Below are positions 31,924 through 59,478 of a DNA stretch of 64,000 nt, piece by piece. The notes beneath the pieces were generated by a model. It was not told the origin of the DNA. It searched no databases and worked only from the letters and a program-made list of their open reading frames with translations. Position 1 is the stretch's first letter; each line of letters begins with the position of its first letter. This DNA comes from a virus (taxonomy: Duplodnaviria > Heunggongvirae > Uroviricota > Caudoviricetes), in the IMG/VR virus record IMGVR_UViG_3300031370_000003, one strand, 5' to 3'. The position numbers and the translations under genes were made by a program.

Positions 31924-33114
31924 TTAAATTTTATTGAAAAGCTTTCTTAATTCAGTCATTAATTTTCTCTGCAATAATTTGTATCGTATTTTCCTGATAA
32001 GGGATTTACTTACTTTATTATCACCGTAAACAATAAAGTAGTTATAGCCACGAATTAAGGCGATTCTATATATGTCGGTAAGGCAGGATGCTTTGTTTTT
32101 ACCAAATGCACCATGTGTTTTATCATCGCTTAATAAATATTTTACGGAAATTTTTTTCTTTCCAATTATGTAATAGGCCATTTCGTAAATTGAAACAATA
32201 ACCTTATCCCCAATCTTATAATCTATCTGATTGTTTTTTATGTTGTAATTCAATCTCAGTTTGCCTGATGATGTTACTTTCAAATGCTCTAGCATTTGGT
32301 ACTTAACAAGAAGATTCGCGAATCTGCCGTCATCACAAACCTCATGTAGGCAATTTAAAAATAAAACAGTAAGTTCGCTCATTGAGAGCTGTGCCCTAAG
32401 AATCCTGGAGTAATATTTTTTCCTCTCTATACTCTCTGGTAAATTATCAATAGTTTTAAGAATGGTATACAGATTCCTGAAGTAATGCCCAAAACACTCA
32501 TTGGATTTATTATTGAAATCCTCATAAAAAATACGAGCCATGCTATAACTATGATGAGGCTTCATTACATGTTCGCTGCAGGATATATTAAATTTACTAT
32601 GATTGTCATCAAGAAATTGAGTAAAGGCAGCTCTTTTTGTTGCATTATTGTATTTTAAGTTTTCAATAATATTGTTTTGAAAATTGATAAGGTTGAAGAT
32701 GCTGGTCTCGTAAGACTGCTCTGCGGTTTTTTTGTTTTGCTTAATTTGCAATGAAATAGTAATCATAAGTGCAATGAAGCCGACACTACCTATTATTGGG
32801 TTTGTTAACCCACCCACAAAATCACCATAGGTTCCAAGTGCTGCCAAATATACCCCAAAGTTTGCATCCTTCAAATTTGTCGAATGAAGTGCTTCAGAAC
32901 CAATGCCATAAACAACTAACAGAAAAAAGCCTAGAAAACACACTGAAATTATTGGGAGAAGATAAGAAATGATTTTTTTAGTCATTGAATTCAGATCTTT
33001 ATAAAGTTCAAAGGAGTATTTTAACATACCGGCAAACCAAAACACATATGATACCCCACCCTTGAGTCTACATTTATAGACTCTACAAGCCATCTTGATA
33101 AAACTTATAGCCAT
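31924..33114 (-). CDS. AT-rich polytopic membrane protein (possible abortive-infection / exclusion-type membrane protein)
   Basis: Minus-strand ORF. GC visibly far below flanks. N-terminal ~120 aa contains 3-4 TM helices (ISYLLPIISVCFLGFFLLVVYGIG, FGVYLAALGTYGDFVGG, IIGSVGFIALMITISL) followed by a ~250-aa Asn/Lys/Tyr-rich soluble domain. Start codon uncertain (33114, 33027 or 32985). Confidence 0.5.
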   Translation of the reverse strand: MAISFIKMACRVYKCRLKGGVSYVFWFAGMLKYSFELYKDLNSMTKKIISYLLPIISVCFLGFFLLVVYGIGSEALHSTNLKDANFGVYLAALGTYGDFVGGLTNPIIGSVGFIALMITISLQIKQNKKTAEQSYETSIFNLINFQNNIIENLKYNNATKRAAFTQFLDDNHSKFNISCSEHVMKPHHSYSMARIFYEDFNNKSNECFGHYFRNLYTILKTIDNLPESIERKKYYSRILRAQLSMSELTVLFLNCLHEVCDDGRFANLLVKYQMLEHLKVTSSGKLRLNYNIKNNQIDYKIGDKVIVSIYEMAYYIIGKKKISVKYLLSDDKTHGAFGKNKASCLTDIYRIALIRGYNYFIVYGDNKVSKSLIRKIRYKLLQRKLMTELRKLFNKI

Positions 33115-44158: not shown

Positions 44159-44358
44159 GCAAAGGCTGCTTTGGCTCACTGATAGCAGCCTCTGAAACTA
44201 ATCCCGTTTGCATGGCATGTTCCAGCAAGCGGGATTGCTTCGTTAAGGCACAAGAGACCGCTATCAAGATTTACGGGAAGTTCGCTGGCTTCCCAAACGA
44301 CAAAATAAAAAAGACAAGTAAGGCAAAAGCACATGAAAGCATTAATGGTACGAACTGA
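44155..44358 (+). CDS. small Cys-rich protein
   Basis: 67 aa with C-x...C-x2-C...C spacing; ATGA overlap with the previous gene. Confidence 0.3.
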   Translation: MSKGCFGSLIAASETNPVCMACSSKRDCFVKAQETAIKIYGKFAGFPNDKIKKTSKAKAHESINGTN

Positions 44359-46690
44359 CTTCTCCCTGGGTGAGTCGTCTTTGAAGGCAGAGCGCGCCGT
44401 AGAGAAAGCCCGCGAAATGGGTTACTCGTCGGTGATCTCCGCTGACAGCATGAATCTGGCATCCGTAATCCCTTTGCAGATGGCGGCTGGTGACGATGTT
44501 GCGGTCATTTGTGGTGTGAAGCTGAACCTGGTTGACGATCCTACATACGAGCACCGTGCTCGACTCGCTAAGGAGTCTAAAGGATGTATGGAATCATTAA
44601 CGCGCGCGCGCAGCTACAGCTTCACGGCGCTCATTAAGAACGAGCAAGGTTATGTCGATCTCTGCGAACTGATGACGCTGGCAAACACACGCGAGCAGTT
44701 TTATCACGTTCCCCGTCTTGAGCTGGCGCAACTGCTGGCGACGTTCGCCAAAGGCAACATCATCCTGCTGACCTCGGACATGGGAAGCGTATTCCAGCGC
44801 CCGGACTTCGCGAAGATTATCGCCCAGCTGGTTCACGCTGGCGGCCGTGAGAACTTTTACTGCGCCGTTTATCCGATTGCTACCCCACTCTATGACCAGC
44901 TGAATAGCAAAGCGCTCAAGGTGGCCAGTGCTCTTAAGATCGAGCCGGTGGCGTTCTACCCTGCTTACTACGAGGCTCCCACTGACGCTGACATCAAAGA
45001 CATCGCGCATATGGTGCTGAACAACATCAAAATCGACCAGCTGCACCGTATGCGAATCCCGTATCAACGTGACAATGGCGTTAATGATCGCCGCCACTTA
45101 CTCCAGCTATTGAAGGAGTTTGCGGTGCGGATGGGTGTCAACGTCACGCCAGCAATGGTCTCAACAACTCAGGACGCGATCATTGATGCGTGTACATGGC
45201 GCTGGCACCCGCTGGAACCCGCTTTACCAACCATGGCAGATGATGAGCCAGCCACATTGCGTAAACTCGCTGTAGAGGGGCTGAGGAAGCGTCTTAGCAC
45301 CAAAGAGTTCGGCTATGCACCACCAGCCACAATGCACCGTGATTATGTTGAGCGCCTGAAGTACGAACTTGATGTTTTAACCCGCCTTGGCTTCTGCGGC
45401 TACTTCCTCATGGTTCACGACTTGATGAATTACGCTCGCCGCGCCGGGATTCCTGTTGGGCCTGGCCGTGGTTCATCCGCTGGCTCTCTTGTCGCCTGGT
45501 GCGTGGGGATCACAAACGTAGACCCTATTCGCCATGGATTGCTGTTCGAACGTTTCATTAACCCTGAACGTCTCGACTTGCCCGATGCTGATCTGGACTT
45601 TAGCCAGGCACGTCGCCACGAGGTCATTGAATACCTGGGTGAGCGTTACGGGGAGGATTACGTCGCTGGCATTCCCAACTTCACATACCTCGGTGCGGCT
45701 TCAGCACTGCGCGACACCGCACGTATCTTTGGCGTGGATTCAGCTGATATGGCGGTATCGAAAGACCTGCGCTTTGTCGATGACGATTCATTGTCACTCG
45801 AAGAGATGCGCGAAGAGCTTTCCAGCCTGGACAAATACGCAGCCAAATACCCGGACGCTTTTAATGCGGCCACCAAACTGCAAAGCCTCATGCGCGGATT
45901 CGGCCGTCACGCAGCTGGCATGATCGTAGCCGGTGTGAAACTGACAGAGCGCACACCGGTCGAGCGACGCGGGGATGCGCGTGTAATCGCTTTTGACAAG
46001 CGTTACTGCGAATCCATGGGATTGATTAAGTTGGACGTGCTCGGCCTTGCTACGCTCGATCTGCTGGCTTATGCGCAGCAATACGTGAAAGAAGCCACGG
46101 GCAGCGTGATTGATCTCGATGCAATTCCACTAACTGACAAAAAGGTTCTTGATGGCTTTGCCGGTGGCCACACCCAAGGCGTGTTCCAGCTTGAATCAGG
46201 TTCGATGCGTAAGCTGCTGAAGGATCTGGGCGGCGGCATTGATCCGATGAGCTTTGAAACAGTTGTCGCCACGACAGCATTATTCCGACCTGGCCCGATC
46301 GAATCTGGAATGTTGGACAGCTACGTTTCGGTGGCCAAAGGCTTCAAAGAGGCTGATTCCATCCACCAGGTGCTCGATGAGCTGACCTCTGAAACCAATG
46401 GGGTAATTCTCTATCAGGAACAAACCATGAAAGCCACGCAGCTGCTGGCCGGCTTCACGCTCGCGGAAGCTGATGGCGTCCGTAAAGCGATCGGTAAAAA
46501 AGACATGGAGAAGATGAAGAAGGTCGGTAGCCAGTTCATTGAGCAAGCCCAGGCTGGCTGGATAGAGGTGAAGCTGGAAGACGGAAGCACTCGCCAGTTC
46601 CACCGCGCGGAGCACTTCAAATGTGCCGATGGCAAGCAGCGAACCATCGAAGAAGCAATGCACGATGGCGCCGACGTTCTGGGCATCTAA
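44333..46690 (+). CDS. DNA polymerase III alpha subunit, N-terminal part (PHP domain, palm, fingers)
   Basis: Hallmark motif GRGSSAGSLVAWCVGITNVDPI; PHP-like N-terminus; ends just upstream of the conserved FNKSH region. Confidence 0.85.
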   Translation: MKALMVRTDFSLGESSLKAERAVEKAREMGYSSVISADSMNLASVIPLQMAAGDDVAVICGVKLNLVDDPTYEHRARLAKESKGCMESLTRARSYSFTALIKNEQGYVDLCELMTLANTREQFYHVPRLELAQLLATFAKGNIILLTSDMGSVFQRPDFAKIIAQLVHAGGRENFYCAVYPIATPLYDQLNSKALKVASALKIEPVAFYPAYYEAPTDADIKDIAHMVLNNIKIDQLHRMRIPYQRDNGVNDRRHLLQLLKEFAVRMGVNVTPAMVSTTQDAIIDACTWRWHPLEPALPTMADDEPATLRKLAVEGLRKRLSTKEFGYAPPATMHRDYVERLKYELDVLTRLGFCGYFLMVHDLMNYARRAGIPVGPGRGSSAGSLVAWCVGITNVDPIRHGLLFERFINPERLDLPDADLDFSQARRHEVIEYLGERYGEDYVAGIPNFTYLGAASALRDTARIFGVDSADMAVSKDLRFVDDDSLSLEEMREELSSLDKYAAKYPDAFNAATKLQSLMRGFGRHAAGMIVAGVKLTERTPVERRGDARVIAFDKRYCESMGLIKLDVLGLATLDLLAYAQQYVKEATGSVIDLDAIPLTDKKVLDGFAGGHTQGVFQLESGSMRKLLKDLGGGIDPMSFETVVATTALFRPGPIESGMLDSYVSVAKGFKEADSIHQVLDELTSETNGVILYQEQTMKATQLLAGFTLAEADGVRKAIGKKDMEKMKKVGSQFIEQAQAGWIEVKLEDGSTRQFHRAEHFKCADGKQRTIEEAMHDGADVLGI

Positions 46691-46762: not shown

Positions 46763-47932
46763 ATGAAAATTTTAGAGACGATCTCCACGAAGCCCGGACT
46801 AAGTGATAGTAAAGCAAAAGAGATCTGGGAAGCGTTTGAGAAAAACGGGGCGTACCAGTTCAACAAATCTCACTCAGTGGCGTACTCGCTGATTAGCTAT
46901 CAGTCGATGTTCATGAAGACGCACTACCCTGCCCAATTCTTCGCAGCAGCGCTGACTATTTTGGGTGATGACAAGCATCAGGGGCTGGTCAAAGACGCGC
47001 TGAGCTTTGGCATTCGCATCTTGCCACCAGATGTAAACATCTCGACCAACCGCATTGAGATCCGTCAGATGGAAGATGGTACGCAAGTGCTGTATGCGCC
47101 CTTCTCAGCTGTTAAAGGATGCTCAGAGAATGGATGCCAGGCGATCATGCGCGCCCGGGCGAAAGTGGGAGGTCATTTCACCGACATCATGCAGTTTGAA
47201 GAGGCGGTTGAGAAGCGCGCCTGCAACAGCCGTGTACGTGACTCTCTCGATCGTGTCGGCGCATTTGCCAGCATCATTCCCGGCAGCGTACCAGCTACCT
47301 CAGAAGAACGTCGCCGCGACCAGGCGGAGCTGATGGGTAATCTGGTGATCGATGCGGTAAAAGCAACACGCCAGTTTGAAATGAACCCGAAACGCCAGGC
47401 TGAAGTAAACGTGCTGATGACCAATATGGCCGCTGAAATGGGGCTGGGTGATGAGCTTATTCGTCCGAGCATCGGCATCAAGCCGCGTCTGATGATCATC
47501 CTCGACAACGCCAACGGTAACGATGGCAAAACCGGTTACTTCATGGAGAACGGTTACGACGACTTCAAGACTAAGTTGCTGGTTGCCGGTGATCTGAAGA
47601 TGGGCGATCTGTACGTGACCGGCGTCTGCAAGAAGGTGAAGGATAAGGAAAAGGACTACACCAAAGACGAGTTAGGCCAGTTTAACGAGTTCATCAAAGC
47701 AGAGGTGGCTCTGGTGCGACCAACGTACATCCTTACGTGCGGTGCTAAGTCCACCAGCCTGTTTAACAACAAATCAAAGCCATCGGATCTTGTTGGCCGC
47801 AAAGAGTATCTGCCGGAGCTGGATGTCACGGTCTTTTATGGCTTCAACCCTAACATCCTCCACTTCCGCCCGGAAGAAGGTGAAAAGTTGGAGCTAATCC
47901 TCGCTGACGTTGCCGAGGCAGTTAATTCGTGA
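46763..47932 (+). CDS. DNA polymerase III alpha subunit, C-terminal part (separate ORF)
   Basis: Begins just before the conserved FNKSHSVAYSLISYQSMFMKTHYPAQFFAAAL segment; own RBS AAGAGG 5 nt before ATG; same reading frame as the N-terminal part. Confidence 0.8.
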   Translation: MKILETISTKPGLSDSKAKEIWEAFEKNGAYQFNKSHSVAYSLISYQSMFMKTHYPAQFFAAALTILGDDKHQGLVKDALSFGIRILPPDVNISTNRIEIRQMEDGTQVLYAPFSAVKGCSENGCQAIMRARAKVGGHFTDIMQFEEAVEKRACNSRVRDSLDRVGAFASIIPGSVPATSEERRRDQAELMGNLVIDAVKATRQFEMNPKRQAEVNVLMTNMAAEMGLGDELIRPSIGIKPRLMIILDNANGNDGKTGYFMENGYDDFKTKLLVAGDLKMGDLYVTGVCKKVKDKEKDYTKDELGQFNEFIKAEVALVRPTYILTCGAKSTSLFNNKSKPSDLVGRKEYLPELDVTVFYGFNPNILHFRPEEGEKLELILADVAEAVNS

Positions 47933-48189
47933 GCAAGCCTCACATCCTCTATAGGGCAGACTTGCGCTGCCCTAACTGCAAATCAGCCCCTGAAGTCATT
48001 CGAATGACCGATGAAAATGCCGAGCAATTTTGGTGGGAAGAGGACGGCACGACATATCCCGTGTTATTGCGCCATACAGAGCTGGCAGCACGTCATTGCC
48101 CATTCAGGACTGAGATCTACCACCTGACTCTCCCGCTGGCTATTGGCGTTTGGAAAGAAGAAATTAAAAACAGGAAGCAACGAAAATGA
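47929..48189 (+). CDS. small hypothetical protein
   Basis: 86-aa ORF, GTGA overlap with the polymerase gene. Confidence 0.3.
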   Translation: MSKPHILYRADLRCPNCKSAPEVIRMTDENAEQFWWEEDGTTYPVLLRHTELAARHCPFRTEIYHLTLPLAIGVWKEEIKNRKQRK

Positions 48190-48566
48190 CTATCGAATTG
48201 GCACCGGCGATGATTGAGAAAGCGCGCGAAGCAATTACCCGTTCTAACTTTTGGGAGTTTATCGACCGCACCATGACGCTTGAGCTGGCCGTGGCCAGCG
48301 CCAAATACGACGGCGAACGCGCCCCTAATCGTCTTCGCAAGGCGGCTAAAGCAATGCTCAACGTCGTTTACGATCCTCTTATGCGTCGATTCGTTGACGG
48401 TATCAGCAGTTCGAGCAAGGCGCTGGAAAAGCTGGATGAGCTAAAGGCATACCGCGACAGCCTGGTGACAAAGGTAGCCAACGAGTTCACCGAGGCGGAA
48501 AAGTTTGGTGACGTTGGTGAGTACCGCCGCCATCGGGCTGAGCGAATGACACGGAAGGCTGCTTGA
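48186..48566 (+). CDS. hypothetical protein
   Basis: 126-aa ORF, ATGA overlap. Confidence 0.35.
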   Translation: MTIELAPAMIEKAREAITRSNFWEFIDRTMTLELAVASAKYDGERAPNRLRKAAKAMLNVVYDPLMRRFVDGISSSSKALEKLDELKAYRDSLVTKVANEFTEAEKFGDVGEYRRHRAERMTRKAA

Positions 48567-48596
48567 TAATAAGGAGCCGTGCATAAAGCGCGGCTC

Positions 48597-49373
48597 TTAG
48601 GAAATTTCACCAACGATAACGTAGCCCGGAATATTTTTACTGCCTCCACTTGGAGTCCCTACTCCATATCTCATCGTCACTAAGTGACTTCCGCGCAAAT
48701 AAATTCGGGCGCCAGCAGCAAACACAATTTCTTTTTCATGACCTTGGTTGGTGTTTTTGTTTTTAAATATATAGGCTTTTGTCTTTGGGTCTTTAACCTT
48801 GAGTAAGGTTAGTTCGAGCCTTCCAGCATTTAAAGCATTAAAGTGCTTTTCAGCCAATCGAACACCTATTTGTGGGCATAGCGAGGTGGACAAAGGTCTC
48901 GTGGTGAAAAAGTCAGCTCCATTTCGGCTAAGCAACCCACCATGATAAACATATTGCCCATCAGGGAGGCATACTCCGACTTCATTGATTATTGAGTTAA
49001 CCTCTGGGTAATCATTACCGCTCTGATGACGTAATTGATAGTTCGACAAAGGTTTTGGAATTGCTGTAGGCATTGAACGTCTCCACTCAGCAAAGTTATT
49101 GTCCGTTTCAAGAAAATCATCAATATGTGACTCAATATCAGTGGCGCCGCGCTGCACCTGGTAAACAGCAGCTGCGTAGGGATCGTTAACTACAGCCAAT
49201 AGGCGTGTTCTGACGTCTCCCATTACGAAATGGTTATGTTGCCTGTAAAACGTTAAAAGTTCATCATGCGTCGGGCGGCGATGTTCCCACTCCTCAAAAG
49301 GATTCAGGAATGGGTTAACGATATTCAATGCTCCGCAATTACTGAGGATAAATTCTGATGCCATGATGAGCAA
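48597..49373 (-). CDS. hypothetical protein, partner of the adjacent nucleotidyltransferase (possible toxin/effector; weak ADP-ribosyltransferase-like motifs)
   Basis: Minus strand, overlaps the upstream NTase gene by 35 nt; contains YVYHGG, RPLSTSL and HEKE segments reminiscent of ART signature motifs (speculative). Confidence 0.4.
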   Translation of the reverse strand: MLIMASEFILSNCGALNIVNPFLNPFEEWEHRRPTHDELLTFYRQHNHFVMGDVRTRLLAVVNDPYAAAVYQVQRGATDIESHIDDFLETDNNFAEWRRSMPTAIPKPLSNYQLRHQSGNDYPEVNSIINEVGVCLPDGQYVYHGGLLSRNGADFFTTRPLSTSLCPQIGVRLAEKHFNALNAGRLELTLLKVKDPKTKAYIFKNKNTNQGHEKEIVFAAGARIYLRGSHLVTMRYGVGTPSGGSKNIPGYVIVGEIS

Positions 49374-49782
49374 TTACCCCAACAAACCCATGCTGCCCAA
49401 AGAAATTGAAGCCCGAGGTTTTATCAAAAATCACATCTAAAAGCCCACTGGAGGGTAATTCCGCATTGGCGAGAGCGAGGTCGTGAGTGAGGCGACTTTC
49501 AGACATTGAAATAAAATCAAATTTTACATGCTGATCGATTCCTTCATGCGGTAACCAATGCTTTAAGAGTGTTTCAAGGGCCTTGTGGGTTTTTGCCCAC
49601 TCATCACTACCATAACGACAAGCCAACTCATACACGGTGTCTTCAAAGACAAACACATAATCGTAATCTCTACCAGATCCTACCTGAGCCTGGCTACCAA
49701 CAAGGTAAATAGCCTTCAGAGGATTTCCAAGGTTCTGAGTTGCCGCCTTTACCACTAAATTATTGATTTGATTTAAGGACAT
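49339..49782 (-). CDS. minimal nucleotidyltransferase (Pol-beta superfamily MNT fold)
   Basis: Signature IYLVGSQAQVGSGRDYDYVFVFED (G-S ... D-x-D); 147 aa. Confidence 0.6.
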   Translation of the reverse strand: MSLNQINNLVVKAATQNLGNPLKAIYLVGSQAQVGSGRDYDYVFVFEDTVYELACRYGSDEWAKTHKALETLLKHWLPHEGIDQHVKFDFISMSESRLTHDLALANAELPSSGLLDVIFDKTSGFNFFGQHGFVGVIAHHGIRIYPQ

Positions 49783-49895
49783 ATACCCTCCCGGTAATAG
49801 GAAACCAAGATTACACCTTCAATTATCATCTGCCAACATTAAGTGCATTATGATAAATTTGCATAAAATAAAGTAACCAACTGGCTATCACGCAC

Positions 49896-50324
49896 ATGAA
49901 CAATATTCTTGATCAAATTATCATCGACCTTGAGTTTAATCGCGACGATCTTGAGGCGGTCTGGCAACGACAACCAGTGCTGCTCATGCAGTACGGTGCA
50001 AGACTGGCGCAGGCTGAAAGACAAGTGGCTGATGCTAAGCGCGGCCTCGATGCGGTTGAGGCCAAACTTTATGACACTCACCGTAAAGACTTGAGTATGA
50101 ACGGCATCAAGTTCAACGAATCAATCCTCGATGCCAAGGTAAAGACCAGCGTGAGCTACCTATCTCATCGACAAAAGCTGGATGATGCTCGTTACCTAGC
50201 TGACATGTACAAACATGCCGTTGCAGCCTTCAACCACCGAAAAGACATGATCGTGCAGGCATCTAAGCTCGCCATTATTGAAATCGAACGCATGGGTGCC
50301 GAACGTTTTAACCGCCCCTCCTGA
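49896..50324 (+). CDS. hypothetical protein
   Basis: 142-aa ORF, mostly helical. Confidence 0.4.
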   Translation: MNNILDQIIIDLEFNRDDLEAVWQRQPVLLMQYGARLAQAERQVADAKRGLDAVEAKLYDTHRKDLSMNGIKFNESILDAKVKTSVSYLSHRQKLDDARYLADMYKHAVAAFNHRKDMIVQASKLAIIEIERMGAERFNRPS

Positions 50325-58199: not shown

Positions 58200-58460
58200 G
58201 AATTGACTGAGGTATGTGGCTATTACATACCGCAGTCAATGGCATTTGCCGAAGTACGCAACTCTACATACCGCAGTCAAGAAATCACATATTCTGGTTG
58301 GTTCAGGGTGGTTTTCATTGACTGCGGTATGCATATTACGTATCGCAGTCAAGATGGGATGTGAGACGCATATCTCAGTGAAGATTGCATACCGCAGTCA
58401 ACATCACATACCGCAGCAAATAAACCGCATATCGCAGTCAATAAACTGCATACCTCAGTC
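58200..58460. repeat. iteron array (about 10 copies of CATACCGCAGTCAA-like 14-mers, both orientations)
   Basis: Copies at ~58204, 58226, 58266, 58318 (inverted), 58340, 58388, 58406, 58425, 58444; irregular spacing; directly downstream of the RepA-like gene. Confidence 0.7.
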
Positions 58461-59478
58461 AATTTTCGGGTTTGGATTTAGCGAGAGCTTCTGCCAGTTT
58501 GACGGGATCTATACCTGCAGTTTTCAAAGCCTTAATGACTTCGTCGTAGTTCTCTTCTGACGGCGGCTGCTCTTCAACCTTTTGTTTAGGCAGCTTAGAA
58601 GTCTGGATCAGCTTCGGATTGCGGTAGTGAACGACGAAGAAGGTGGAGTTTCCGCGTTTAGTTTCGGTGTATTCGAGGTACCCGATTTCTTTCAGTTGTT
58701 CCATGGCCTTTCTAACAGTGTGATTTTGCGTGTAAACGCTTGAAGTCAGGTTAAGCCGGTCACGAAGGCGCTTCATCGAAATGGGAGCGTGGTTCTGGGG
58801 TAGACTTTCAATGAAGGTGTATAGAGCCTGGGCTGATTCTTTGCGTGGCAGTGCATCAATGGCTTTAAGTCGAAGCAGCACACGCCTGTCCATGTCATAA
58901 AGTTCGAAGAGCTTAGGCTCAGCTTCAATTTCAACAACGTTTTCAACGACATCGTATGAAGCTGATTTTACCAGGTGTGTCACCCACCCTTTCGTATCGT
59001 TCTGGAACTTAAGCGTTACGGATGCCAATTTGAACAGGGAGTTACTGATACGATCTCGCATCTTCTGGTTGGAACGCCGGCTATCGAACCCACACATTTT
59101 AACGAACTCGACAAACGTGAGCTTAAGCGCACTTCCCTGCACCCCATGCTCAGCCATTGAGCGAACGATCCCCAGCCATACCTTGAAATCAGTGTCCATA
59201 TCCAAACGTGACCCTGTAATTTTCACGTCGTTGTAGCCTTCGCTCTTGGCTATGGACAACTGGACAAGTTCTTCGGTCGCATCTGTGATATTTTTACGGT
59301 TAGTCTTGCTCTTACTCGTTGATTTTAGGGTAGGTACAAACAGGCCGAGACGCATGAGAGGTACCGGCTGAACAGTGCTGGAGCTGTTAATATCCAGTGA
59401 AACGATCTCACCTGTCGATTTGTTTGTTTCTTCCAAATTCATCGGTAAGGTTTTGGATTTCTTGACCATTTTATGCAC
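58459..59478 (-). CDS. replication initiator (RepA-like, iteron-binding) candidate
   Basis: 339-aa minus-strand ORF flanked on both sides by arrays of the same 14-mer; basic N-terminus; no other plausible binding protein nearby. Confidence 0.55.
   Translation of the reverse strand: MHKMVKKSKTLPMNLEETNKSTGEIVSLDINSSSTVQPVPLMRLGLFVPTLKSTSKSKTNRKNITDATEELVQLSIAKSEGYNDVKITGSRLDMDTDFKVWLGIVRSMAEHGVQGSALKLTFVEFVKMCGFDSRRSNQKMRDRISNSLFKLASVTLKFQNDTKGWVTHLVKSASYDVVENVVEIEAEPKLFELYDMDRRVLLRLKAIDALPRKESAQALYTFIESLPQNHAPISMKRLRDRLNLTSSVYTQNHTVRKAMEQLKEIGYLEYTETKRGNSTFFVVHYRNPKLIQTSKLPKQKVEEQPPSEENYDEVIKALKTAGIDPVKLAEALAKSKPEN

Follow-up and report, generated by a model that had tools for sequence, protein, structure and literature searches.

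A replaceable gene pair in the replication region of a phage-plasmid

The analyzed stretch of 64,000 nucleotides (hereafter, the window) belongs to an SSU5-like phage-plasmid of Cronobacter, whose replication region holds, at positions 48563-49869, a discrete, low-GC module of two minus-strand genes. This module consists of the following parts:

48563..49869, no strand assigned: the accessory cassette as a whole, replaceable as one block, 1,307 bp with a GC content of 42.8%; its site varies in content among SSU5-like phage-plasmids
49339..49782, minus strand: geneA, 147 aa, with a minimal-nucleotidyltransferase (NTase)-like N-terminal half; predicted antitoxin/neutralizer
48597..49364, minus strand: geneB, 255 aa, predicted ADP-ribosyltransferase (ART)-fold protein and predicted toxin/effector; alternative starts at TTG 49373 (258 aa) and TTG 49328
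48574..48596, no strand assigned: hairpin rich in GC, flanked by the convergent stops at 48566 (plus strand) and 48597 (minus strand)
49783..49869, minus strand: cassette-specific 5' region inside the replaced block; presumed location of the promoter

The edges of the cassette are defined by comparison with related elements. Homology to a plasmid of Cronobacter sp. JZ38, at 93% identity in the flanks, ends at 48562 and restarts at 49870, and the right breakpoint in the comparison with pCP102, at 49896, is close to the latter position. The GC content of the window as a whole is 49.4% and that of the flanks is 51-53%, so that the cassette falls in the 5.6th percentile among segments of equal size. 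The preliminary description of this DNA, made from the sequence alone, recognized two minus-strand ORFs (49339..49782, 147 aa; 48597..49373, 258 aa) as the only minus-strand unit between 40 and 58 kb. Both observations hold: every other minus-strand ORF of at least 110 aa in this region is nested within a longer plus-strand ORF, which leaves the cassette as the sole free-standing minus-strand unit. The same phage-plasmid carries a second low-GC, opposite-strand moron that encodes a putAbiC protein.

The cargo slot is bordered by a DUF7740 gene on one side and a UvsY-like gene on the other. The equivalent site is occupied by HicA/HicB in phage Cyrano and by the Pycsar genes PycC and PycTM, together with an REase, in pCP102; in SSU5, it contains two genes of matching sizes, annotated as hypothetical and AlpA-like, which we only infer to be HicAB. 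Judging by the HicAB and Pycsar genes of the sibling elements, the site has a toxin-antitoxin (TA)/defense character. A 248-aa protein encoded at the equivalent site in JZ38 was considered as a possible relative of geneB, and was found to be unrelated to it.

The hairpin noted previously at 48574-48596 is located exactly there (GAGCCGCGC-TTTAT-GCACGGCTC); it is real, with a folding energy of -14.8 kcal/mol, and only moderately exceptional (z -1.9, with 9 of 200 shuffled sequences equally stable). This hairpin is likely to be a bidirectional terminator that was missed by a simple terminator scan because it lacks a clean T-run. The two genes had been described as overlapping by 35 nt, which is the case with the mechanically assigned start TTG 49373, whereas ATG 49364, favored by the gene callers that select the equivalent start in the homologs, yields an overlap of 26 nt. 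The third candidate, TTG 49328, would leave a 10-nt gap after geneA, as in locus L007, and the homologous pair in locus L040 overlaps by 4 nt (ATGA). The coupling is tight under every choice of the start, with an overlap or gap of 4-35 nt across all loci that contain both genes. A Shine-Dalgarno sequence, GGGAGGG, can be read 5 nt ahead of the ATG of geneA. A scan of the minus strand of the 5' region for the sigma-70 consensus returned no match and was uninformative; the search for inverted repeats in the cassette and the promoter region found none, and no operator-like repeat is present upstream of geneA; and an Rfam search of the cassette identified no family.

Searches of Pfam, NCBIfam and PADLOC yielded nothing useful for either protein, PADLOC having no model for geneA or geneB. 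The PDB sequence searches with both proteins, as single sequences and as profiles, gave nothing above noise (the matches were a designed helical bundle, SEC9, KMT2D, and GLD-2 with an E-value of 1.4); megablast and tblastn searches of the INPHARED phage collection detected no relatives of geneA or geneB; and no description of an NTase+ART pair was found in the literature. A match of both proteins to a housekeeping family had been named as the outcome that would speak against a toxin-like pair, and neither geneA nor geneB belongs to such a family, so the housekeeping interpretation (a fragment of a tRNA NTase) was rejected.

GeneB, a predicted ADP-ribosyltransferase-fold protein

Three segments of geneB had been singled out as reminiscent of ARTs, namely, YVYHGG, RPLSTS and HEKE. 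All three are present and coincide with the canonical beta1, beta2 and ARTT/beta5 elements (numbering from the TTG start at 49373):

48942..48944, minus strand: codon of His144, which closes ART strand beta1 within the motif YVYHGG; invariant in 25 homologs
48882..48890, minus strand: Ser162-Thr163-Ser164 (STS), ART strand beta2; nearly invariant
48729..48740, minus strand: His212-Glu213-Lys214-Glu215, the ExE catalytic motif, in the ARTT loop/beta5; invariant in 25 homologs

No ART relative was detected in the PDB sequence searches with geneB, profiles included, and the Pfam search, which covered the ART profiles PF03496 and PF01129, gave no match; one of the 25 homologs matches PF03496 with an E-value of 0.029, which does not reach the cut-off, and the PHROG that includes this family is labeled ‘unknown function'. 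The high-confidence model of geneB matches only ADP-ribosyltransferases, in agreement with the earlier suggestion of an ART-like partner. The best structural neighbors are C3, the VIP2/iota family and T4 Alt, with sequence identity of 9-18% and no detectable profile membership, and, in a library of viral structures, the neighbors comprise Alt-type RNA-polymerase ADP-ribosylases and ARTs fused to MuF. In the model, His144 ends the strand 141-145, STS lies in the strand 161-164 (LSTS, nearly invariant over all four residues) that is followed by the helix 167-183, and HEKE precedes the strand 215-218. Thus, the modeled structure and the conserved motifs identify geneB as a predicted ART-fold protein of the R-S-E (C3/VIP2/Alt) clade, which sets it apart structurally from DarT and RES.

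The STS and ExE/QxE motifs are located on the same structural elements in geneB and in the C3/VIP2/iota/Alt proteins, many of which are phage-encoded as well. The beta1 motif of geneB, however, is [YF]-H-G-G, with an invariant His where the aromatic-R-G Arg of the clade is expected; the nearby R159 is not invariant. By the order of motifs and secondary structure elements, His144 appears to be the positional equivalent of this Arg, and, because the canonical residue is replaced, the predicted activity could differ, for example, toward NAD+ hydrolysis. GeneB also differs from these proteins in having, in the model, an additional N-terminal beta-alpha subdomain of ~100 residues and no secretion or packaging domain. 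No sensor domain is recognizable in geneB.

GeneA, a near-orphan protein with a nucleotidyltransferase-like motif

The candidate catalytic residues of geneA are the following:

49660..49698, minus strand: G29-S30...D39-x-D41, NTase-like motif; invariant, aligned with G27-S28 and D39/D41 of MntA
49516..49518, minus strand: Asp89, candidate third carboxylate; invariant

GeneA is a near-orphan. An HMM search of 1.84 billion representative proteins recovered only its own family, in two clusters, with no link to the NTase superfamily; the homologs include just five close ones and one with 37% identity, and the GS/DxD motif and D89 are invariant down to the latter. No match to PF01909, PF18765 or the NCBIfam MntA model was found at an E-value of 1 or less. 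The motif itself, VGS-x8-DYDY, has a spacer of 8 residues, one under the canonical range hG[GS]x9-13Dh[DE]h; the strict pattern hG[SG]x7-13Dh[DE]h occurs once, in geneA, in the 24,765 residues of all window ORFs of at least 100 aa. When the geneA family was compared, using hhalign, with 40 PF18765/PF01909 proteins, MntA sequences were matched with a probability of 82-85% (P 6e-6) over ~40 residues, a local match only, whereas the controls (reversed, unrelated and 40 shuffled sequences) scored 0.2-9.6%. Residues 8-48 of geneA are placed on residues 7-48 of MntA, with GS and DxD aligned; D89 pairs with D71 of MntA only in an extended alignment at a relaxed threshold and with low confidence. The AF2 model of geneA is poor. 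Hence, by profile comparison, geneA locally resembles MntA, and the ‘clear Pol-beta NTase signature' of the preliminary description is overstated: the GS...DxD motif is invariant and aligns with MntA, but searches of Pfam, NCBIfam, PDB sequences and the 1.84 billion proteins retrieved no NTase relative.

Homologs and exchange of partners

The A-B pair is modular and mobile, and moves as a unit. In an unrelated phage (L040), homology to the window is confined to positions 48601-49840, and the next gene encodes the terminase small subunit; in L007, the pair adjoins T4SS genes. Within the phage-plasmid lineage, the identity of A and B follows that of the flanks.

The homologs of geneB are preceded by diverse genes. 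One (L041) is located downstream of an Arc/FitA-like RHH protein (E 3e-21), with an 11-nt overlap, and another, in a Morganella prophage moron (L001), follows an HTH_3+Peptidase_S24 repressor at a distance of 38 nt; two more follow unrelated small proteins of 156 aa (L008) and 168 aa (L015, Tn3 cargo), and some follow MoxR+VWA genes. An all-against-all BLAST of the geneB-neighbor genes revealed no similarity among the partners and no common partner family, and close relatives have exchanged the upstream partner. Either gene can also be found on its own: a Franconibacter phage-plasmid (L038) has only a geneA homolog (37% identity, catalytic residues intact) at the equivalent site, L024 has a geneB homolog without an upstream partner there, and solo geneB homologs are present on conjugative IncI1-type plasmids. 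Neither gene, therefore, strictly requires the other.

Distant homologs of geneB come directly after portal and MuF genes (L023, L029), and one homolog is located ahead of scaffold/capsid-like genes (L028). The neighbors of the chromosomal homologs are defense-type or mobile genes, with McrB-like proteins, SMEK, PDDEXK nucleases, a reverse transcriptase, integrases and transposases among them. Prophages, transposons and defense islands of environmental Rhodanobacter, Desulfobacteraceae, Kangiellaceae and Vibrio also encode homologs of geneB.

A candidate toxin-antitoxin or abortive infection module

On balance, the cassette is probably a TA or abortive infection module in which a toxin of the ART type is paired with an MNT-like antitoxin. 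The two co-directional, tightly coupled genes form their own replaceable block, and proteins of the geneB family occupy canonical TA positions, downstream of the RHH protein in L041 and of the HTH_3-S24 repressor in L001. The TA or abortive infection layout that had been proposed from the arrangement of the two genes is thus supported by the comparative context, that is, the presence of HicAB and Pycsar at the site, the RHH gene upstream of a homolog, and the movement of the pair as a unit.

For the toxicity, neutralization, target, trigger and phenotype of the cassette, we infer the following scheme. GeneB is predicted to be a mono-ADP-ribosyltransferase that would spend NAD+ on the modification of a macromolecule of the cell or of an invading phage; the E-x-E motif, by analogy with characterized ExE ARTs, points to an arginine residue of a protein as the target. 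Left unchecked, geneB would stop growth. GeneA, translated just upstream and coupled to geneB, would keep it harmless in the carrier cell, either by binding it or by covalent nucleotidylylation, as MntA does with HepT, the second option being suggested by the invariance of the GS/DxD/D residues. The toxin would be set free when the phage-plasmid is lost or when another phage infects the cell, and the outcome would be plasmid addiction and/or exclusion of competitors.

The closest known parallel is HepT-MntA (HEPN-MNT, type VII TA). In HEPN-MNT modules, the small NTase gene comes first and overlaps the toxin gene, and MntA neutralizes its own toxin enzymatically, by polyadenylylation. The cassette shares the order, in that a small NTase-type gene precedes a larger, predicted toxin gene and is closely linked to it, but the partner of geneA has the predicted ART fold instead of being a HEPN RNase, and geneA itself is missed by PF01909 and PF18765, has the shorter GS-to-DxD spacer (8 versus 9-13) and contains an added conserved C-terminal region, GFVGVIAHHG; the NTase fold of geneA is putative. 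Conversely, none of the ART modules DarT-DarG, ParS-ParT, Xre-RES/MbcTA, Tre1-Tri1, Listeria Lmo0066 ART-ARH, Bxa-Bsi/BAH and phage p0068-ART/Dmd includes an NTase-like partner; the antitoxins of the known ART pairs are macrodomain or ARH hydrolases, Xre-type HTH proteins, Dmd and simple binders (PMC9503650, PMC11699363). Most likely, the pairing of an NTase-like protein with an ART has not been described before.

A more specific scenario is speculative and rather unlikely to hold in full: geneA would neutralize an ART of the Alt/C3 clade enzymatically, in the manner of MntA, by covalent nucleotidylylation, which would make the cassette a type VII TA with an ART in place of the HEPN RNase; geneB, with a hybrid H-STS-ExE site, would represent a hitherto unannotated family of promiscuous toxins for which mobile elements recruit many different neutralizers; and the module would serve the phage-plasmid in addiction as well as in keeping out rival phages.

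Several observations do not fit the TA or abortive infection reading well. The constant neutralizer that is typical of TA toxins is not seen, given the solo geneB in L024 and on the IncI1 plasmids and the orphan geneA in L038; geneA lacks a DNA-binding domain and any Pfam or NCBIfam match, and its NTase fold is putative; no operator-like repeat is seen in the promoter region; PADLOC models cover neither protein; the canonical beta1 Arg of geneB is replaced by His; and some geneB homologs reside in portal-MuF head modules, the setting in which offensive ARTs packaged by phages are encountered (PMC9503650).

Alternative explanations

Alternatively, geneB could be an offensive or anti-defense, Alt/Mod-like ART that is used on entry or induction to reprogram host proteins or disable defenses, with geneA as a helper, inhibitor or timing factor. 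We regard this explanation as unlikely, albeit less so than the other alternatives. It is in line with the Alt-type and MuF-fused structural neighbors, with the placement of the homologs after portal/MuF and before scaffold/capsid-like genes, with the solo homologs on conjugative plasmids, and with the solo geneB in L024, which suggests that geneB is not lethal alone. Furthermore, ~44% of phage ARTs have been reported in head-packaging contexts, and few viral ART-toxin TAs are known (PMC9503650); toxins that phages package have, in particular, been described next to MuF (PMC5576092, PMC9503650). However, geneB of the window is not part of a morphogenesis module but lies in a low-GC, opposite-strand block at the HicAB/Pycsar site, with no MuF or other head gene fused to it or next to it; the partner of geneB is upstream, whereas the immunity genes of polymorphic toxins are downstream; and the coupling of its homologs to RHH and HTH repressor/antitoxin-type genes, along with the exchange of the upstream partner between close relatives, is antitoxin-like behavior.

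It is improbable that geneA and geneB are independent accessory genes that share a cargo slot, with their adjacency only historical. The orphan geneA of Franconibacter, the many contexts in which geneB lacks geneA, and the identity of A and B that tracks the flanks inside the phage-plasmid lineage could all be explained in this way; however, A and B overlap or are separated by 4-10 nt at every locus where both are present, they were transferred jointly into an unrelated phage with homology restricted to the pair, and geneA is otherwise almost absent, with its two clusters in 1.84 billion representatives.

The preliminary description also allowed for nucleotide signaling, whereby, under CBASS/Pycsar-like logic, infection would cause geneA to produce a second messenger that switches on the ART effector. 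An NTase-like motif next to an effector enzyme, and Pycsar itself at the equivalent site in pCP102, are compatible with such a system, but at 147 aa geneA is far below the size of CD-NTases, neither protein has a PADLOC or Pfam match (cyclases included, for geneA), the nearest profile match of geneA is the MntA antitoxin family, and geneB has no sensor domain and is present at many loci that lack geneA. On these grounds, a CD-NTase signaling system is highly improbable and was rejected.

Finally, C3 and other ART toxins are known to be phage-borne, but the possibility that geneB is a C3-like exotoxin against eukaryotic cells, that is, a phage-carried virulence factor of Cronobacter, is hardly credible and was dismissed, considering that the N-terminus has no signal-peptide-like hydrophobic stretch (by eye) and there is no delivery domain, that the motif is ExE as opposed to the QxE of C3, that the upstream partners are of the antitoxin type, and that the homologs come from environmental bacteria and mobile elements.

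Implications

Should the TA or abortive infection reading be confirmed, geneB would represent a new family of toxins or effectors with the ART fold, entirely missed by the profile libraries (Pfam, NCBIfam and PADLOC), although it spans prophages, phage-plasmids, conjugative plasmids, transposons and defense islands of Proteobacteria. The principle of the MNT-type ‘enzyme antitoxin' would then extend past HEPN toxins. The His in place of Arg in the otherwise R-S-E-type site of geneB poses a testable structure-function question. The slot between the DUF7740 and UvsY-like genes of SSU5-like phage-plasmids is a place where TA and anti-phage cargo is exchanged, namely, HicAB, Pycsar and ART cassettes, and as such is relevant to the persistence and competition of these clinically common elements of Enterobacteriaceae.

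Cassette architecture and host element

DNA searches group the window with the SSU5-like phage-plasmids of Enterobacteriaceae, with Cronobacter plasmids and contigs as its nearest neighbours. The alignment to the Cronobacter sp. JZ38 plasmid stops at 48562 and picks up again at 49870, so that a hairpin, both genes and the 5' region make up a single replaceable 1,307-bp cassette. The GC content of this block is 42.8%, compared with 49.4% for the window and 51-53% for the flanks, which encode a split DnaE, a DUF7740 protein, a UvsY-like protein, a gp32-like SSB, a 5'-3' exonuclease, RecA, CobT/AAA and a Rep3 initiator. The features of the cassette are:

49339-49782, minus strand: geneA, nucleotidyltransferase (NTase)-like, 147 aa
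48597-49373, minus strand: geneB, predicted ADP-ribosyltransferase (ART), 258 aa counted from TTG
48574-48596: hairpin between convergent stops, -14.8 kcal/mol, z -1.9

The preliminary description presented geneA and geneB as co-directional and as the only minus-strand unit between 40 and 58 kb. Both are in the mechanical ORF list, and all other minus-strand ORFs of at least 110 aa in this interval are nested within longer plus-strand ORFs, which leaves the pair as the sole free-standing minus-strand unit there. The hairpin lies exactly where it had been placed; it is genuine though not exceptional, with 9 of 200 shuffled sequences folding equally well. A strong Shine-Dalgarno sequence, GGGAGGG, precedes the ATG of geneA by 5 nt. 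The start of geneB is ambiguous, and the 35-nt overlap originally described holds for the first of three candidates but not for the other two:

49373, minus strand: TTG, 35-nt overlap with geneA
49364, minus strand: ATG, 26-nt overlap, picked by gene callers in close homologues
49328, minus strand: TTG, 10-nt gap as in locus L007; conserved sequence begins here

Residues 1-13 of geneB show no conservation and have pLDDT <50; in locus L040, geneA and geneB share an ATGA overlap.

A second opposite-strand, low-GC gene of the window, a 396-aa ORF (31924-33114, minus strand), lies where the GC content of the window is lowest (about 32-36%) and hits the Pfam family putAbiC, of putative phage abortive-infection proteins (E 2e-20); thus, the element carries defence-type morons in the style of the cassette. 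The Rep3-family initiator (58459-59478, minus strand; Rep3_N and Rep3_C) fits maintenance of the element as a plasmid. The gene for the DnaE-type polymerase is broken into two same-frame ORFs of 785 and 389 aa (44333-46690 and 46763-47932, plus strand), with three in-frame stops in the 72-nt spacer; related Cronobacter-group elements keep the split, and in SSU5 one gene of 1,172 aa takes the place of the two. The 86-aa ORF at 47929-48189 (plus strand), with a CxxC pair and no Pfam match, is an indel, present in loci L003 and L008 and absent from the JZ38 plasmid, pCP102, L009 and L011, and marks a second small variable slot adjoining the cassette.

An ADP-ribosyltransferase fold in geneB

Searches of Pfam, NCBIfam, PADLOC and, by sequence, PDB gave no matches to geneB, and its only match in the sequence libraries is phrog_30303, of unknown function. 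A profile of 25 geneB sequences did not find an ART in PDB by sequence, and only one of the 25 homologues touches PF03496 (E 0.029). Structural comparison of the geneB model recovers C3bot2 (11.5), C3stau2 (11.2), Certhrax (10.9), Vis (10.9), the Listeria ART-ARH toxin Lmo0066 (10.8), the iota-like CPILE-a (10.8), VIP2 (9.5), Tre1 (8.7), SpvB (8.4) and ExoS (8.3), and the Foldseek neighbours among viral models are Alt-type RNA-polymerase ADP-ribosylases and MuF-fused ARTs. As modelled, geneB is an ADP-ribosyltransferase-fold protein. The three ART-like motifs noticed initially (YVYHGG, RPLSTSL and HEKE) all fall on canonical ART elements:

YVYH144GG: end of strand beta1
LS162TS164: strand beta2, then helix
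GH-E213-K-E215: runs into beta5

Among the 25 homologues, down to 33% identity, His144 and HEKE never vary and STS hardly does, so that the site reads H-STS-ExE; R159 varies. The serine and glutamate motifs resemble those of the R-S-E clade, whereas a histidine stands where arginine is expected, as in H-Y-E enzymes. Judging from motif order and secondary structure, not from residue-level superposition, His144 would occupy the Arg position. Characterised ExE enzymes have arginine-directed protein mono-ART chemistry, and by analogy this is the most likely activity of geneB, which might instead be an NADase. The geneB family is an unannotated ART family with an unusual His-for-Arg site.

A divergent MntA-like candidate in geneA

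The NTase signature of geneA had been called clear, which is too strong. G29-S30, D39, D41 and D89 are invariant throughout the family, and among the 24,765 residues of the window ORFs, the strict NTase motif occurs in geneA only; however, Pfam, NCBIfam and PADLOC gave no matches. There are only five close homologues, and searching 1.84 billion representatives exhaustively with an HMM added one further relative (P0016, 37% identity) and no NTase. When the geneA family was compared by hhalign with 40 aligned MntA-family proteins carrying PF18765/PF01909 (MntA being the minimal-NTase antitoxin of HEPN-MNT), the match had a probability of 82-85% (P 6e-6), with geneA 8-48 aligned to MntA 7-48, GS on GS and DxD on DxD; the reversed query scored 0.4%, an unrelated profile 0.2% and 40 column shuffles at most 9.6%. 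At a relaxed threshold and with low confidence, D89 pairs with the invariant MntA D71. The C-terminal region (GFVGVIAHHG) is family-specific. GeneA is thus best regarded as a probable, divergent minimal nucleotidyltransferase whose N-terminal catalytic half is credibly MntA-like.

Cargo of the slot and contexts of the geneB family

The equivalent slot of related phage-plasmids holds diverse cargo. Phage Cyrano carries HicA/HicB, and SSU5 has in the same place two genes of matching sizes, a candidate HicAB pair. The Enterobacter sp. CP102 plasmid pCP102 (L032, 2078-4257) encodes a Pycsar-like PycC cyclase, a PycTM effector and a DpnII/MboI-type REase-domain protein (RefSeq labels these merely as a cyclase and hypotheticals). 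JZ38 has three unknown genes, L008 an unrelated 156-aa acidic protein with a geneB homologue (68% identity), and L024 a geneB homologue (35% identity) without an upstream partner. In a Franconibacter daqui phage-plasmid, the slot holds a geneA homologue (L038 6001-6450/L039 3618-4067; 37% identity, GS/DxD/D intact) without an ART gene, which could be an orphan antitoxin or function independently. The 168-aa gene beside it lies on the replication strand and is Toprim-like.

Across about 40 loci, the contexts of the geneB family form three groups. In the first, geneB is coupled to an upstream gene of antitoxin or regulator type: an Arc/FitA-like RHH protein (L041, 11-nt overlap), an HNH_2 protein (L012), unrelated small proteins (L008 and L015, the latter pair being Tn3 cargo) and the partners in L001 and L006. 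In a Morganella morganii prophage (CP023505.1; L001, 7108-8747), an opposite-strand two-gene moron within the tail genes codes first for a 284-aa HTH_3+Peptidase_S24 protein of the self-cleaving LexA/CI-like type and then for a geneB homologue (47% identity), which suggests SOS release of this ART. In a MAG contig (JAHFQO010000015.1; L006, 256-4895), the geneB homologue (36% identity) comes after genes for a VWA protein and a bpMoxR AAA+ ATPase, which is how MoxR-VWA-effector conflict systems are arranged; it has a YhcG nuclease and a cluster of DUF4160, DUF2442 and HTH genes as neighbours.

In the second group, head-morphogenesis loci show the order portal-MuF-geneB (L023 and L029), and in L028 geneB is directly 5' of homologues of the genes downstream in L029. 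The third group consists of solo homologues, which neighbour defence or mobile genes: McrB-like, SMEK, PDDEXK nuclease, reverse transcriptase, integrase and ISL3 genes and, on IncI1 plasmids, genes of the 'abortive infection family', DUF3800 and DUF2971. Shorter solo homologues (224 aa, about 34% identity), which lack the first ~60 residues and are annotated as hypothetical, are conserved on the Salmonella IncI1 plasmid p931IncI1 (L034, 3902-4576) and on 20 other plasmids, IncI1-type and other Enterobacteriaceae.

GeneA is found only beside close geneB homologues (at least 63% identity), yet the geneA-geneB pair has been transferred as one piece. In L040, only 48601-49840 of the window has a counterpart, followed by another phage's gene for a terminase small subunit; in L007, the pair adjoins T4SS genes, and a DUF7740-like fragment nearby suggests derivation from a phage-plasmid.

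Function of the cassette

ART toxins with cognate neutralisers include DarTG, ParST/RES-Xre, Tre1-Tri1, ART-ARH, Bxa-Bsi/BAH and p0068-ART/Dmd, and MNT antitoxins occur in HEPN-MNT modules. PADLOC v2 has no model for geneA or geneB, and literature searches turned up no report of an ART with an MNT-like protein as its partner.

The reading that we favour, by a modest degree, is a toxin-antitoxin or abortive-infection-type module, with geneB as the putative toxin and geneA as the neutraliser, because the module is discrete and replaceable and occupies a toxin-antitoxin/defence slot, its genes are coupled in antitoxin-first order, homologues have recognised antitoxin domains upstream while near relatives swap the partner, and the two genes move together. 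The orphan geneA and the solo geneB copies show that neither gene strictly needs the other, which lowers confidence in this reading to slightly better than even. The main rival, an offensive, Alt-like role of geneB, appears rather unlikely; it draws on the homologues in head modules, the unpartnered copies that conjugative plasmids carry, and the literature, where phage ARTs are mostly packaged and viral toxin-antitoxin systems with ART toxins are few (PMC9503650). Under the favoured toxin-antitoxin reading, geneA, which resembles MntA and whose catalytic residues never vary, might neutralise geneB enzymatically.
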